Shown here: positions 1 through 6,273 of the stretch, one piece after another | Position numbering within the stretch: the first letter of the stretch is position 1 | Layout: the number at the start of each line of letters is the position of its first letter | Origin: Candidatus Latescibacterota bacterium | GTDB lineage: Bacteria; Latescibacterota; UBA2968 | Length of the DNA stretch: 64,000 nt | Direction of reading: 5' to 3' | Assembly: GCA_965208125.1 (NCBI GenBank) | Contig: OZ242320.1 | Span: 1,824,001-1,888,000 of the forward strand | The notes under the pieces: model-generated | The model's database searches: none | Told to the model about the DNA's origin: nothing | Seen by the model: the letters and a program-made list of their open reading frames with translations, nothing else | Translations under genes and position numbers: made by a program

Positions 1-306
1 CTCTTCTTTAGAATTAAGAAATCGGTCAATGTACTGTTCAAGTAGCTCCAAATCTTCTGTGAGGGATCCATATAAACGGTCGTCAAAGTCAAAGATAGTT
101 TCTTTTTGGGCTGGTGGGAGGTCTGGATCTGGTACAAGATCGTCAATTGAGCATCCTATGGTATAAGCCCATTGTTTCAATAGATCAATAGGGATATCTC
201 CGCTGGCCTCATATCTGGATACCCGGGCCTGAGTAATCTTAAGAGCTTCCGCAAGGTCCTTTTGCTTTAATCCCGATTCTTTTCGAAGGTCTGCTAGATT
301 CTTCAT
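1..306 (-). CDS. XRE/Cro-family HTH protein, N-terminal part (continues beyond window start)
   Basis: Not in ORF track. Hand translation from ATG at 306 (RBS AAGGAG upstream) gives MKNLADLRKESGLKQKDLAEALKITQARVSRYEASGDIPIDLLKQWAYTIGCSIDDLV..., an HTH_3 pattern. The frame stays open to base 1, so it is probably a multidomain fusion. Confidence 0.85.
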   Translation of the reverse strand, partial: MKNLADLRKESGLKQKDLAEALKITQARVSRYEASGDIPIDLLKQWAYTIGCSIDDLVPDPDLPPAQKETIFDFDDRLYGSLTEDLELLEQYIDRFLNSKEE

Positions 307-365
307 AATTAAGTCTCCTTTTGGGTACGTTGTACCATCTGCGAAGATGGCACAACGTGGAAAAA

Positions 366-674
366 TTACCTACCAGCCTTTCGACCACCACCGCCAGCTC
401 TTTGGTTCAGTGGAGGATTATGCTGGACAATCTTGGCTTGCTCATGGACACGGCGAGTTGTAGATGTACTTCTGCCATCCGCTCTCTGCCAGGCAAAAGT
501 ATGGGTCTCACGCGGTGCCAGGCCCGTACGACGATGTTCTCCAATTCTGCGATTCAGGTTCACAGTTTCCCCAAAGTAATCCACCTTGCCACTTTCATTA
601 TTGATGGCACGATAGAATCCGGGGGCATTGGGCGGCTCTTGCGTAGAGGGCCGCCCGCGTTTAGTAATGGCCAT
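366..674 (-). CDS. Small stand-alone GIY-YIG nuclease-like protein
   Basis: PGFY...DYFGETVNLNRRIGEH...E...NPPLN matches the GIY-YIG motif order; RBS TAGGAGG upstream. Confidence 0.75.
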   Translation of the reverse strand: MAITKRGRPSTQEPPNAPGFYRAINNESGKVDYFGETVNLNRRIGEHRRTGLAPRETHTFAWQRADGRSTSTTRRVHEQAKIVQHNPPLNQRAGGGGRKAGR

Positions 675-704
675 AAAAGACCTCCTAAAAAAGGATTGAG
701 ATTG

Positions 705-934
705 TGGGCTACCAGTTGCTCCGGTAGCCCGTGACTTACCGGCAGTTATACCGCCATCGCGGCGAAGTGCTGTCCGACGGTGATCAAAACCGTAGCGATG
801 ACGCTGTACAACACTTTGAGCAGTAGTGCGTGCATAGCTTTCTCCTTTTGGTTACGCTGGCTGTCCGAACAGGAAGAGCCAGAAAAGATGAGAGTTATGG
901 GCTACCAGTTTCTCCAGTAGCCCACGACTTACCG
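705..934 (-). repeat. Two 37-nt direct repeats (705-741, 898-934), each forming a GGGCUAC-GUAGCCC hairpin
   Basis: tgggctaccagttgctccggtagcccgtgacttaccg vs tgggctaccagtttctccagtagcccacgacttaccg, 33/37 identical; each lies just downstream of a micro-peptide stop codon. Confidence 0.9.
746..835 (-). CDS. 29-aa hydrophobic micro-peptide (copy 2)
   Basis: Hand translation MHALLLKVLYSVIATVLITVGQHFAAMAV*; RBS AAGGAG; paralogous to 935-1039. Confidence 0.7.
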   Translation of the reverse strand: MHALLLKVLYSVIATVLITVGQHFAAMAV

Positions 935-1039
935 CTACTGTGGCGGACGTCTATCTGCCATCGACGCGACGTGCTGCCCTATGGCCACTATGGCCGCGGC
1001 GAGAGCACTATACAGCACTTTTTTCCCAAGTGCTTTCAT
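935..1039 (-). CDS. 34-aa hydrophobic micro-peptide (copy 1)
   Basis: Hand translation MKALGKKVLYSALAAAIVAIGQHVASMADRRPPQ*; RBS AAGGAGG; shares KVLYS...GQH...MA with copy 2. Confidence 0.7.
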   Translation of the reverse strand: MKALGKKVLYSALAAAIVAIGQHVASMADRRPPQ

Positions 1040-1103
1040 GATTTTCCTCCTTTGCTATGCCCGCTACGCATTTCTGCGGGAAAAATGAAATGTGATTTCC
1101 CAT

Positions 1104-1132
1104 AAAGTAATATTGAAATTTTATTTTGTCAA
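1104..1132 (-). promoter_or_regulatory. Putative sigma70 promoter for the peptide-peptide-GIY-YIG-XRE operon
   Basis: Minus strand TTGACA (1132-1127), 17-nt spacer, TACTTT (1109-1104), in an AT-rich divergent intergenic region. Confidence 0.55.
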
Positions 1133-1431
1133 GTTATTTTTATTAATAATTGAGAAAAATTTATTGATTTAATCCTTAAAGCATAATCCCTACTTAATAT
1201 AAACGATAATTGATGGTTAATCGGATTACGGTGCGCCCACAATGTATTTTCCAATCACAAAACCCCGCGTTATTCGTTTCAGAGGGCGCACTCTTATTGA
1301 TGTTATGCCCGCCCGCAGGTCTTCAAAAGATATGCGACACCCCAAAGCGCAAGGATGTCTAAATGTCTGCGGGCGGTCAGCACTGGTGTTGGCCGTTGGG
1401 TTCAGGCTGTTGCTTCTTTCAGGAGGTTGTC

Positions 1432-2251
1432 ATGTCAGGTTCGTCGTTTGTGGTTCCGTCGGCTGTGTTCTCGGGGTTGTCCGCTCTGTCTGGCCCCGTG
1501 GCTGTTGTGGGGTCGCGTTCTTTGCCGTCTGCGGCGTTGCTTTCGGTTGCTCGGTTCGGTCGTTGGGTGGGTCGTTCTCGTCCGCTCTGGTCCGGTGGGG
1601 CGTTGGGCGTTGATAGCGCTGCGTCTGCTGGTGCTCTGGCGCAGGGTGGTCAGGTGTGCTGGTGGTTGCCGGCTGGGTTTGGCGAGTTGGCCGCTGGGTC
1701 TTCGTCGCCTGTTGTTCGTGGCCCGGGTGGGGTCTTTCCCGTCTCGGCGCCCCGTCAGTTGGCTCGTTCTGTTCGGTGTGTTGCCTGGTCGGGTGGGCCG
1801 TCTTCCGCTTCTGTGCCTTTCAGCGAGCGGTTGTTCCAGCGGTCGGTTTCGCTTCTTCTCTCGCTTCGTGGTGCGGGTGGTGGGTCTGTGGTCTGCTTCA
1901 TCTCTCAGGTTGCTCTTTCGGCTCGGCGTGGTGGGTCCTGGTTCACTGTCCGTCGTGCTTTGGGGCTTGGGTTCCGGCCTGGCCGCGTCGTTGTTCGTTG
2001 TGCTCGTTGGGCCTGGCGGTTTTTCGCTTTTGTCGCCGGGGGCTGTGGTGTCCGCCTTTTTCGCTCCCTCTTCTTCTCAGCAGTCTCTCTTCACTCCCGA
2101 GCAGCTCGTGGGTGCGCGTCCGTCTCTCTTCCCGCCGGTGTCTCCTTCTGGGTCCCGTCGCGATCCGCATGGCGAGCGGTTTGATTCTCAGTCCGTGTGT
2201 GGGCCGTTGTCTCAGGCGTTCTGGCTCGGTTTCCGGTTCAGGTCTGGTTAG
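1432..2251 (+). CDS. DprA/SMF-like (SLOG superfamily) protein, extremely adenine-poor, probable frameshift near 1987
   Basis: RBS AGGAGG then ATG 1432; VAVVGSR, SGGALGVDSAA and GGSWFTVRRA are the DprA/SLOG Rossmann motifs. This frame stops at 2184, but another frame (ending 2251) carries a more plausible tail, SLFVVLVGPGG...QQSLF. Confidence 0.7.
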
Positions 2252-2418
2252 GGTTTCTGGCCCTTCGGCCGCGGTCCATGTGTCGCATGTATGGCGATAA
2301 TTATGCGTGCATTTGTCGCCTTCTATACGTCAGTTGTCCACAAAAAGATACCGCGCTCCCGATAGCAGGAACGCGGCACTGAGTTGTTTTAGGGAATTAT
2401 ATCCAATGTTAGCCAATA

Positions 2419-3230
2419 TCAAAACTGTGATTCTTTTGCTTTTTTGGTTCTTTCAGCTTCCCTTTTTTCGCTTTGGGAACTCCTATGCTGCCAATAGCCT
2501 TGAAAACGGTATTCAAGTTCTAATTGGTTGAAATCTCCAACTCTTTTAAAGGAGAGGCGAATTTCTTTAAGTTGCCATTTGTTATCCGCATCAAAATCGG
2601 ATTTTCTCCAAAGTTCACTATCGGAATCTTGCGCCACGCGTACCTGTTCAGCCTGATCAAAAATAAACATACCCGGTATCTTCAGCCCGAACCCCTCTTT
2701 ACCATACTTCCTTCTTATACTAATCGTAAGAATTAAGTTTGCCTGGTCTATTGCCTGCTCAAGCTGTCGCAGAGTCGGGAAAAGGATTTCCCTCCTACTA
2801 CTGCTTACTGTTGGAGCGGCATCCCTGCCGCGATCACCCAATTTCGAGAACCTAATGCAAGATTTCTATATCTGATTAGTATTAGAATGTCGCGTATTTC
2901 CCAATACTTCAATCTTGGGTTATCAATCTCCCATTCCAAACGGACGGCCAGAAGTCCACTCTTTGGCAAAATTTCAAAATTTATGTACTTGGCATCCTTT
3001 GGCATTTTGGGATTTCGGACATAAAAAGATTCAAGCCCGAATACCGTCGTGCCCCCGAGGTTCTCAATAGTGCCAAAGTCCAAAGCGCGAATTTCATCAA
3101 TAGTCATCCCCTTCTTGAGTCCAAAAATATCTGCGTCTCTGGCGTCGCCATACGCCAGAGTGAACACACAGACCACCCAAATTGAAATTGTCCACGCAAG
3201 ACCTATACGTTTCAACAGTGAAACCTTCAT
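2419..3230 (-). pseudogene. Exported hypothetical protein split by a 162-bp insertion
   Basis: Signal-peptide-like N-terminus and FGLKKGMT motif. Removing 2719-2880 plus one AT copy joins ORFs 2805-3281 and 2419-2841 in frame (...WEIRDILIRRKYGKEG...), giving ~215 aa. Confidence 0.75.
2719..2880. mobile_element. MITE-like insertion carrying REP-like palindromes
   Basis: Ends ACTAATC...GATTAGT flanked by AT on both sides. Internal motifs gtcgggaaaaggatttccctcctac and gagcggcatccctgccgcgat also occur, partly, at 37372-37456. Confidence 0.75.
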
Positions 3231-3556
3231 AGCTATTTCTCTTATTCGCATAGCGATTCCAACCACGTCCATGCCAAGCATCTTTCCAGATAGACGGTAT
3301 CAAATGTGGCATTTGATGGCAGTGCGCTTGGTCGGGTAAGCCACACCTTGCAGTGTGCCGTGTTCTATTCGATCACCTCAACCGCCATTTCGATCATTGC
3401 GTCACCTGTTGGCATCCTCCACCACAGTCCCACCGTCAGCCCTTGGGCATTTTTCTGTTCGGTTGCCTTGATATACCAGTCCGAAGGCGTCAAGGCGACG
3501 TGGGCGGAATTACCCGCTTTATTGCACTTTTTGGGGATAACCCGCCTGGAGCTTCA

Positions 3557-4714
3557 TCAACTTGTCCAACCGGCAGGATCACTATCGGATAGACAGGAGA
3601 AAAACTGGACATGTCCGCAGTGGTCACAGACAAAGACCTTAAAGGATTGGCTTCCCTTTGGTTCCAACCCAAAATTGCTTATAGCAATGGGATTTCCTCT
3701 ATTTATAGCCAGTTTGTAAATCCCGAAACCACAAACTCTGCATGGGCGACGTACAGTATCGCTCATTCGATCACCGCCAAGTTTCAAGACTTCGAGGAGG
3801 ACGTCAATCTCGTAGAGCAAGATCCTCGCATTTTTGAGGCAATCCCGTTCACGTTCAACAATGCATTTATCAAGCAAACCATTGAGAAGTCTCATTTCAG
3901 GTCTGCCGGGGAACATTGCCTCAATATTGTTCCCTGGTTCGCGGTGATACCAAAGATGTAAAAACGGCTTGCCCGATACTATTGCCCAGATGACTTTACC
4001 CAATGAAAATACATCGAAACTGGGGTTTATATCTTCTATGCGCCTGCGCATAGCCCATGGTGGCATCCAGTCGGTACTTCCCACGTTTTCAAGGGTGCCA
4101 CTGATTCTCGTATGTCCTGGATCCTCAAAGAACACGAGACCAAAGTCGCCGAGTACCAATTGTTCGTTCTCATCTACAAAAATGTTCTCTGGCTTGATGT
4201 CGCGATGAACGATTTGCTTTTCGTGTAAGGAGGCAACCCCTTCAACGATCGGTCGAATTGCAGTGAGGGCATGTTTTACTTGTCCGGTGTACCGATCAGA
4301 CCTGTTTTTCAAGGTTCCTTTTGGATAGTATTTCGAGACGAACCACTTTTCCTCAAAGTTGAGATCCACAACCTCCAGAAGGTTTGGGTGGTCGGCTTGC
4401 TGCATAGCTTCCAACTCGCGTTTTAGCCGTTCCTCTGCATCATCGAAATTCTGGGCTTCATCCGGCGAGTGTAGAATTTTGAGCGCACCGTGATTCACAG
4501 GGTTTTCAGCCTGCACAATTTCGGAAATGATTTTTCGCATCAACTTCATTGCCTTCGGGGCATTGTATAGTTGACCGGCCTGTTGGACTGCCTCAAATAA
4601 AGTATCCGCAAGGTCGTCCAAAGGGACCTCATGCTTATCCAAGACACGGATGACCTTCCCCTGTCCACCTTCACCAATCTCTTCAATTTCCTCCCAACGA
4701 TTTTCGTATTTCAT
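3557..4714 (-). CDS. Hanks-type Ser/Thr protein kinase with C-terminal Zn-ribbon
   Basis: GEGGQGKV, ALK, HRDIKPENI, DFG, DVFSLG; C-terminal CRVC...CDHC. Confidence 0.92.
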   Translation of the reverse strand: MKYENRWEEIEEIGEGGQGKVIRVLDKHEVPLDDLADTLFEAVQQAGQLYNAPKAMKLMRKIISEIVQAENPVNHGALKILHSPDEAQNFDDAEERLKRELEAMQQADHPNLLEVVDLNFEEKWFVSKYYPKGTLKNRSDRYTGQVKHALTAIRPIVEGVASLHEKQIVHRDIKPENIFVDENEQLVLGDFGLVFFEDPGHTRISGTLENVGSTDWMPPWAMRRRIEDINPSFDVFSLGKVIWAIVSGKPFLHLWYHREPGNNIEAMFPGRPEMRLLNGLLDKCIVERERDCLKNARILLYEIDVLLEVLKLGGDRMSDTVRRPCRVCGFGIYKLAINRGNPIAISNFGLEPKGSQSFKVFVCDHCGHVQFFSCLSDSDPAGWTS

Positions 4715-4980: not shown

Positions 4981-5331
4981 TCATTTTTTGATCTTGATAA
5001 CGACAATATAAGGAAGCCCATCATTGTTTGGCACAAATTCAGCCCTGTATTTGTGAGGATTCTGCCATGACCAGGGTATTCCCCCACCTTCATTTTCCAT
5101 CCATTGTTTGAATTTGTCTGGACAGTCTGTGAACTTAAATGACGGGTCATGACTCCAGTTTAAAATAGATTTTAGAACAAGGGGAGTTTCATCATTTTTG
5201 GGAAGCCAGAAATTAACTTCCCGAAGATCCTTTAAATAATCGATAATCCTGTTTCTGTTGGTAATAGCAAAGAAATAACTGTTGCCGCTTCCGCGAGCCG
5301 TTAATTCGATCCTCTTACTTATGTTAGTCAT
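4981..5331 (-). CDS. Hypothetical protein
   Basis: 116-aa ORF with GAGGAGG RBS, co-oriented with neighbours. Confidence 0.6.
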   Translation of the reverse strand: MTNISKRIELTARGSGNSYFFAITNRNRIIDYLKDLREVNFWLPKNDETPLVLKSILNWSHDPSFKFTDCPDKFKQWMENEGGGIPWSWQNPHKYRAEFVPNNDGLPYIVVIKIKK

Positions 5332-5422: not shown

Positions 5423-6028
5423 TCAGAGATCCTTCAATTCCTCCTCGCAGATACAAAAAAAGTCTTCAATCTCATAAGGCTCAAGATTGCTCGAAATTGG
5501 CTCTGGTATGTCCTCAATTGATAATGATTTTTGTCTGTGATTTAGCCCAAGAGCCTTTGCACCGATCTTCGCCCCACTGTGCAGATAGATGACCTTCGGA
5601 TATAAGCCAAGTTTTGCCCCAATTCTCAGTGAGATGTCATAAATAGTCAGACAGCCAATGTCTGGGACAGTTATTATTATGCTATACACAAGTTCTCTTA
5701 AATCTTCAAAGTTTTTGCACATTTTGATTTTATCCTGAACACCAAGGAGTCTCCTCGCTGATTCATCAAGCGCAGACTGGGTTCTTCTTTTTTGGTGTGC
5801 ATGTCGTTTCCCATCAGGCCGGAGGCTGAGTGCGGCAATTCTAATCGCATCATTTAGAGTCTGATGATCATAATATCTGAAGTATTCCTTCATTCTATCC
5901 CTGTGTTCGTCAATGTAATAGAAGACAAGAGCACCAAGAGTCAAATCTCTTTGCCCTCTATTCTTGGAACTACAATTGAACGCCTCAACAGGCTTGGACG
6001 TTGAGCAATCCATATCATCAAAATTCAT
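5423..6028 (-). CDS. Hypothetical protein, possible HhH-like DNA-binding/modification fold
   Basis: RBS AAGGAG before ATG 6028; VPDIGCLTIYDISLRIG resembles a helix-hairpin-helix motif. Confidence 0.55.
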   Translation of the reverse strand: MNFDDMDCSTSKPVEAFNCSSKNRGQRDLTLGALVFYYIDEHRDRMKEYFRYYDHQTLNDAIRIAALSLRPDGKRHAHQKRRTQSALDESARRLLGVQDKIKMCKNFEDLRELVYSIIITVPDIGCLTIYDISLRIGAKLGLYPKVIYLHSGAKIGAKALGLNHRQKSLSIEDIPEPISSNLEPYEIEDFFCICEEELKDL

Positions 6029-6273
6029 TTTCAACTCCTTTACATGTTTTGAAAACGTTTCACCAAAACAAAAAGTGTAGCAACGATGAAAGTTTGTCAA
6101 CCGCATTTCAACAACTTGCCAGAGATTGCTTTTTCTGACTTAAAATCTCCACATGCGTTTTTTTTCGCGCTATCAATATATATTACAGGTTGCCAATTGC
6201 ACAGGACTTGCGTTTCTTGTTCCTAGACCGGCAGCGCAAGTCTCCCAACTATAACCTGAAGAAAGGAGAAACA

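Follow-up and report, generated by a model that had tools for sequence, protein, structure and literature searches.

KdpF, AcrZ and peptides of the MgrB type are single-helix peptides of ~30 residues, often encoded by the first cistron, that bind a larger membrane protein. In the ldr/rdl, ibs/sib and zor/orz systems, short hydrophobic peptides occur as tandem paralogues surrounded by structured RNA; the ldr, ibs and zor toxins typically come in tandem copies. The hairpins of the Rhodobacter puf operon and the repetitive extragenic palindrome (REP) of malEFG are intercistronic stem–loops with a role in segmental mRNA stability, and in puf, small single-helix peptides are encoded by the upstream cistrons and are required in larger amounts than the proteins of the downstream ones. 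Here, we analyze a stretch of 64,000 nucleotides (nt) from a Candidatus Latescibacterota bacterium (contig OZ242320.1, positions 1,824,001 to 1,888,000), called the window below and numbered from its first nucleotide. At its beginning, two micro-peptide genes, pepA and pepB, each followed by a stem–loop, precede the genes for a GIY-YIG nuclease and for a protein that joins a helix–turn–helix (HTH) domain to a dynamin-like GTPase. The explanation that we favor, with moderate confidence, is that pepA and pepB are paralogous membrane peptides encoded by a duplicated unit, that they share an operon with the two larger genes, that the hairpins process or stabilize the transcript, and that the unit belongs to an accessory block. 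No description of this type of operon was found in the literature.

On the minus strand of positions 1–1150, a promoter-like region is followed by pepA, a hairpin, pepB, a second hairpin, the GIY-YIG gene, and the HTH open reading frame (ORF). The gene pepA (1039–935) encodes 34 amino acids (aa), MKALGKKVLYSALAAAIVAIGQHVASMADRRPPQ, with a Shine–Dalgarno sequence GGAGG at 1050–1046; its product is a predicted single-pass membrane peptide with a best 19-aa Kyte–Doolittle window of 1.58. The paralogue pepB (835–746) encodes 29 aa, MHALLLKVLYSVIATVLITVGQHFAAMAV, with AAGGAG at 847–842 and a best window of 2.14. An earlier note on this DNA had proposed the two minus-strand ORFs, their strong ribosome-binding sites and the gene order, and the coordinates and sequences agree with it. 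It had also taken the ORFs to be unannotated; both exact peptides are in fact present in a public protein collection (P0001 and P0002; sources NCBI and ENA). The tandem units, each with a ribosome-binding site, a peptide ORF and a stem–loop, can be aligned across ~200 nt, and their halves differ: a 37-nt hairpin block is identical at 33 of 37 positions, whereas the coding part is 64% identical. On this alignment, the arrangement is a tandemly duplicated unit of ~200 nt. The stretch is contained in sponge metagenome runs.

The two peptides have 15 of 28 residues in common, although 30 of the 84 corresponding nucleotides differ. The differences fall 12, 4, and 14 times on codon positions 1, 2, and 3, and eight codons differ only synonymously. 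With the NG86 method, the nonsynonymous (dN) and synonymous (dS) distances are 0.35 and 1.21, for a dN/dS of 0.29. In a simulation, 30 random substitutions were put into pepA in 20000 rounds, 9619 of which remained stop-free; the observed BLOSUM score was reached in 3 of these and the observed identity in 186. A hidden Markov model built on the two peptides and run against 1.84 billion representative proteins gives three matches at E ≤ 1e-3, namely pepA, pepB, and a third peptide from another assembly, P0003 (30 aa, E 7.6e-8, 63% identity to pepA). P0003 has the same start and register and nearly the same end. The alignment of the three contains 11 invariant columns, among them LY and GQH, and the best 19-residue Kyte–Doolittle windows are between 1.6 and 2.1.

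The ORFs could be chance frames in a duplicated untranslated leader: they are very short, and the 167 other genomes of the phylum contain no homologue. Such an origin does not agree with the codon-position pattern, the dN/dS or the 3 simulations in 9619; the third homologue, moreover, keeps the same start, register and length, and the ribosome-binding sites are strong and correctly spaced. We consider chance frames very improbable, and the idea is already disfavored. On the strength of the dN/dS, the simulations and the third homologue, the ORFs are taken as real genes, and we conclude from these comparisons that pepA and pepB are genuine members of a new small-protein family under purifying selection. 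The earlier note had proposed membrane or amphipathic micro-peptides conserved despite DNA divergence; the dN/dS, the simulations and the public entries all speak for real, selected and hydrophobic micro-peptide genes.

None of the family collections searched includes the peptides. At E ≤ 10, neither Pfam nor NCBIfam gives a match, no PADLOC-type toxin family fits, and comparison with the Atlas gives only scores ≤0.84, to unnamed clusters. A back-translated pattern of the peptide motif matches once in genome_contigs and once in metagenome_contigs, both times by chance inside long unrelated ORFs, and has no match in viral_contigs. In the phage collection, pepA and the GIY-YIG protein are both unmatched.

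Upstream of pepA, an AT-rich sigma-70-like promoter region on the minus strand (1104..1146) is recognized both by its sequence and by the promoter scan. The hexamer TTGACA (1132–1127) is separated by a 17-nt spacer from a weak −10 element, TACTTT (1109–1104), while the scan's own minus-strand candidate is TTAATA/TAAAAT at 1146–1118. In the orthologous locus of a relative, genome G013, TTGACA and the downstream ATATTA are retained inside a block of 77% identity (window 1353–1126). The promoter is a moderate match only: of the sigma70-like promoter claimed in the earlier note, the −35 hexamer is there and the −10 element falls short.

The distribution of promoters bears on the possibility that the peptides act as membrane toxins of a type I-like or abortive-infection kind: small pore-forming effectors that RNA structure or the proteins encoded downstream restrain until phage attack releases them. 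Peptides of ~30 aa that are hydrophobic, with charged ends and tandem paralogues, fit such toxins, and the neighborhood resembles a defense island (see below). Yet neither an antisense promoter nor a terminator is found over the peptide genes. The consensus scan places no plus-strand promoter reading into 746–1039, and the sole nearby site (1113–1140) points away. Both genes follow a single promoter, their Shine–Dalgarno sites are strong and unsequestered, and no toxin family of Pfam, NCBIfam or PADLOC type matches (Atlas ≤0.84). The type I-like toxins suggested in the earlier note are thus unlikely.

Hairpins A and B follow the peptide genes on the minus strand. Hairpin A (923–899) starts 11 nt past the stop codon of pepA and has a 10-bp stem with two G·U pairs and a 5-nt loop (dG −18.7 sense, −12.6 antisense; z −5.7). 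Hairpin B (730–706), 15 nt past the stop of pepB and ~20 nt upstream of the ribosome-binding site of the GIY-YIG gene, has a 10-bp stem with one G·U pair and again a 5-nt loop (dG −19.3 sense, −15.8 antisense; z −5.5). The two are 193 nt apart, and the window contains exactly these two matches to the pattern versus none expected from shuffles. The lone stem substitution between them, from C-G to U·G, preserves pairing. The identity of the blocks, their spacing and the pairing-preserving substitution had been described in the earlier note and were reproduced.

The G·U pairs in the arms become A·C on the other strand. The sense strand therefore folds better than the antisense, by 3.5–6 kcal/mol, and the symmetry is RNA-like and not DNA-like. 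In the 5.75-Mb genome, the hairpin pattern has two copies, even when ≤5 substitutions are allowed. The covariance model R1, run across 21 genomes of the genus, retrieves only hairpins A and B and nothing in the 20 congeners; in metagenome_contigs, the exact pattern has no match. These counts rule out a dispersed repeat of the REP or MITE (miniature inverted-repeat transposable element) type, the outcome that the earlier note had named as fatal to its proposal. The data support a locus-specific, sense-strand element of RNA type. At E ≤ 1, Rfam has no match in window 1–3000.

The same strand bias bears on the idea that the 25-bp inverted repeats act as DNA, as operators for the HTH protein or as sites that the GIY-YIG nuclease recognizes or cleaves, with the peptide ORFs secondary. 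Two near-identical imperfect palindromes do precede genes for an HTH protein and a nuclease; in two metagenome relatives the homology breaks off exactly at the border of the hairpin-B block, as might be seen at a site of recombination or cleavage; and the GIY-YIG family looks mobile. The G·U pairing, however, is RNA-like, with the better sense fold given above. The repeats lie 180–400 nt past the promoter, no such repeat accompanies the HTH-dynamin orthologues of G013 and G003, and the peptides are themselves selected. We hold a DNA site to be improbable.

A uridine run begins 13–14 nt beyond each stem, and no U-tract is adjacent. For that reason, the terminator scan, which calls a canonical terminator at 2379–2348, passes over hairpins A and B. 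The hairpins are accordingly not canonical intrinsic terminators, since the GC-rich stem is present and the U-tract directly after it is missing; the earlier note had likewise set the hairpins apart from canonical terminators on account of the displaced U-run. The position of the stems could still fit leader peptides with translation-coupled attenuators that govern read-through into the GIY-YIG and dynamin genes. The stop codons are 11–15 nt before the stems, so that a terminating ribosome would reach the base of the hairpin, and each stem is followed by the U-run at 13–14 nt. Against such attenuation, the terminator scan calls neither hairpin, a fold of 441 nt contains no standout antiterminator pairing, and the hydrophobic core and GQH are kept across three sequences, although leader peptides are normally not conserved over their full length. 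We give attenuation a low probability.

A further stem–loop, hairpin C (358–327, minus strand), is found between the GIY-YIG and dynamin genes. Its 14-bp stem is unrelated in sequence to A and B (dG −23.6 kcal/mol, z −6.4), and in G013 it takes a weaker 9-bp form. Every intercistronic gap of the operon thus contains a stem–loop. Two GIY-YIG paralogues in other congeners also have a hairpin of 14–15 bp right before their ribosome-binding site (at approximately L030:1442–1476 and L032:1442–1475), with two compensatory base-pair changes between the two genomes. Hairpin C and those of the paralogues indicate that hairpins are generally placed ahead of cistrons, as far as can be judged from these loci, and the special association of hairpin and peptide implied in the earlier note does not hold. 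The hairpins are most likely elements of RNA processing or stability, to judge from their placement and strand bias, while a role as terminators, operators or mobile repeats is improbable.

The GIY-YIG gene (674–366, minus strand; AGGAGG at 686–681) encodes 102 aa with a basic GGGGR tail. Its product scores 23.8 bits against PF01541, where the cutoff is 22.6, and the match covers profile positions 3–34 only. The eight aligned family members all keep Y21, R22, Y33, G35, R43, E78, and N90; Y21, Y33, R43, E78, and N90 we take to be the catalytic set of GIY-YIG. On these residues and on a Pfam cutoff narrowly passed, the 102-aa protein can be placed in the GIY-YIG superfamily. Among the 168 genomes of the phylum searched, the family occurs in 8 of 20 congeners and in none of 147 others. 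Its loci (L026–L038) include a second copy in the same genome (L034:1501–1809). Their contexts are varied, 3′ remnants are present in G013 and G016, and in G004 a copy is split in two. The gene family looks mobile on this distribution. In viral_contigs, the family alignment gave 23 pattern matches, none of them confirmed.

At two paralogue loci, L034 and L029, a conserved hydrophobic ORF of 28–31 aa with a strong ribosome-binding site is found directly 3′ of the GIY-YIG gene. A relationship of these ORFs to the micro-peptides was rejected: hhalign against the profile of pepA, pepB and P0003 gives a probability of 0.6%. Some GIY-YIG copies are near putative IS1595-like transposase ORFs, assigned by reading the translations.

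The last gene of the operon leaves the window at its start, with its first 102 codons at 306–1 on the minus strand (whole gene L002:10306–8096). The protein of 736 aa combines HTH_3 and Dynamin_N (E 1.6e-10) with a LeoBC-like C-terminal part (PADLOC LeoBC model, E 7e-11 over residues 412–723), and a glycine-rich hydrophobic segment can be read in the translation near the C-terminus. The earlier note's XRE-HTH fusion is right as to the HTH; its nuclease–regulator module is not a plain one, since the gene joins the HTH to a LeoBC-like dynamin GTPase. It is the only dynamin match of the genome, and among eight neighboring proteins compared with PADLOC there is no LeoA. In the protein database, HTH-dynamin fusions make up 85 clusters at E ≤ 1e-10, some labeled as metagenome-assembled genomes of Gemmatimonadetes. 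The fusion may represent a form of dynamin-type defense in a single gene that has not been described before.

Of 60 pattern matches from a first search for related loci with the dynamin protein, none was confirmed. Among 60 relatives, dynamin orthologues occur in three congeners, G013 (65%), G001 (59%, broken) and G003 (54%). In G013, 56 nt separate the promoter block from a GIY-YIG remnant (the final 45 nt of the gene), where the window has 718 nt. The simplest reading of the state in G013 is that an ancestral operon lost its pep–hairpin–GIY-YIG block by deletion. Since a dynamin gene is retained in genomes that lack it, this block is an accessory one, gained and lost.

In metagenomes, contigs from four runs of four studies were compared. 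In run X4, from another study, contigs are ~89%–90% identical over 940–1071 (pepA) and over 618–797 (the end of pepB, hairpin B, and the start of the GIY-YIG gene). In X1 and X5, relatives are 83%–89% identical over the GIY-YIG and dynamin genes and the homology stops at 737–740, the 5′ edge of the hairpin-B block; beyond this point, no contig gives cover at ≥80% likeness, which leaves room for divergent peptide genes there. The unit was seen in the two-copy state only, and the relatives either lack the cassette or lose homology at the hairpin-B edge, which does not bear out the expandable array of the earlier note.

In other assemblies, the contig of P0003 has the same size (36,547 nt) as that of a GIY-YIG homologue, P0039 (75% identical). 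The GIY-YIG homologues P0038 and P0040 are on contigs of 63,046 and 91,945 nt, the sizes of the contigs of the dynamin homologues P0059 and P0060 (68%–69% identical). The equal contig sizes suggest that peptide/GIY-YIG and GIY-YIG/dynamin pairs recur. The locus arranges known kinds of parts in a new way and brings a new small-protein family; as far as seen, it is confined to one sponge-associated lineage.

Under the explanation that we favor, pepA and pepB would be single-pass membrane peptides of ~30 residues, transcribed as first cistrons from one sigma-70-like promoter together with the GIY-YIG and HTH-dynamin genes. The stem–loops would protect the mRNA segments on either side of them and so set the ratio of peptide to enzyme. 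At the membrane, the peptides would partner or modulate the dynamin-like protein, as KdpF and AcrZ do with their larger proteins; this last step is our preferred guess, though a tentative one and less likely than not. Bolder still is a four-gene, membrane-linked anti-phage system, undescribed so far, made of the two micro-peptides, the GIY-YIG protein and HTH-dynamin, in which the peptides would be sensors or pore-forming effectors under the control of the dynamin-like GTPase, the hairpins would fix the ratio, and the pep–hairpin unit would be a dosage module of variable copy number. We regard such a system as unlikely.

Several observations weigh against the favored explanation. The 167 other genomes of the phylum are without a peptide homologue (the best non-self match, E 0.013, lies within long ORFs), and at 10 other GIY-YIG loci none has one inside 1.5 kb. 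In G013, G001 and G003, neither the peptides nor the hairpin nor a complete GIY-YIG gene occurs within ~6 kb of the dynamin gene, so any partnership is not obligatory. In the other assemblies, linkage is seen as identical contig sizes only, and not as adjacency. The −10 element of the shared promoter is weak, the covariation of the hairpins amounts to one stem substitution between two copies, and translation of the peptide genes and their shared transcript are predicted from the sequence. The peptides, with a charged N-terminus and a hydrophobic core of ~13 residues followed by G-Q-H-V-A-S, could equally be read as signal-peptide-like.

The neighborhood looks defense-island-like, with a LeoBC-like dynamin, an RmrA-like gene, a kinase and a PsyrA/ShosA-like gene, all judged by family matches. 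A gene that combines XRE-HTH and an M78 peptidase (L002:6428–7504, plus strand, which corresponds to window −3572 to −2496) runs convergently to the dynamin gene and matches PADLOC RmrA models (E 1.2e-47); the 590-nt gap that follows it contains no obvious toxin ORF. On the minus strand, a Ser/Thr protein kinase gene (3557–4714) resembles PADLOC mad6 (E 3e-39) and PD-T4-6; the ORFs on either side of it (2419–2841, 2805–3281, 4981–5331, and 5423–6106) have no known family.

The PsyrA/ShosA-like neighbor, a DprA-type gene (for ShosTA, see PMC11961720), is directly upstream of the operon, at 1233–2391 on the plus strand, was assigned by family matches, and is poor in adenine. It has 26 A in 841 nt, and because of this scarcity no frame of the six contains a stop codon. 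In the window copy, a frameshift puts the N- and C-terminal parts into different frames. The genome contains one other adenine-poor region (L003), which is a 94%-identical copy at genome positions 1726047–1726963. The A-poor body lies between the arms of a 9-nt inverted repeat (ATGCGACAC / GTGTCGCAT), and a "head" of 120 nt (1234–1353) is common to the window copy, the second copy and G013. Homologues in G011, G017 and G056 are equally A-poor, with 2–9 A per 100 nt; the genome G056 represents a different family, and its homologue is 61% identical in amino acids. Comparison of the window copy with that of G056 gives a dN/dS of 0.22. At the fourfold sites of G056, A is avoided too (15 of 219). 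In 32 database clusters that form the family, only 2%–20% of residues need an A-containing codon; for ordinary ORFs in the window, the share is 44%.

When A was collapsed to G for a genome search, no unmutated parent copy turned up, and the genome has no match to the RVT_1 reverse transcriptase. In the sponge metagenome runs, the contigs matching the A-poor element have summed depths of 70–720, versus 3–15 for the flanks, values that are not copy numbers. From these comparisons, we read adenine avoidance as a property conserved in a protein-coding family under selection, and not as a one-off hypermutation. As candidate causes, one may think of a single-stranded RNA or DNA form immune to an adenine-directed enzyme, or of an adenine-specific mutational process. 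Nothing was found in the literature on adenine-avoiding bacterial genes. We judge this DprA-like family more surprising than the peptide cassette and deserving of its own study.

Taken alone, the peptide locus is one lineage-specific accessory cassette, known from its sequence, and it extends the known proteins of uncultured sponge symbionts by a new small-protein family. Should the peptides act together with HTH-dynamin, they would offer a handle on a well-populated, uncharacterized family (the 85 clusters) and would bear on how bacterial dynamin-like defense proteins engage membranes.

Among described systems, the type I toxin–antitoxin arrays have in common with the locus the hydrophobic tandem peptides and the RNA structure. 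They differ in that here no antisense RNA gene is detected, one promoter is present, the ribosome-binding sites are exposed, enzymes are encoded downstream and no family matches. With Eleos (LeoA/LeoBC), the likeness is in the last gene, with its Dynamin_N domain and its match to the LeoBC model. In contrast to Eleos, no LeoA-like second dynamin occurs among the scanned neighbors, the N-terminus carries an XRE-type HTH, and a GIY-YIG gene and two micro-peptide genes precede. The puf and malEFG operons offer the parallel of a stable intercistronic hairpin without a U-tract, although the sequences are unrelated and the hairpin here is not a dispersed repeat. With KdpF, AcrZ and MgrB, the likeness is in the size of the peptides and in their position as leading cistrons; there is no sequence relationship, and here the peptides are two tandem paralogues with, as candidate partner, a dynamin-like GTPase.

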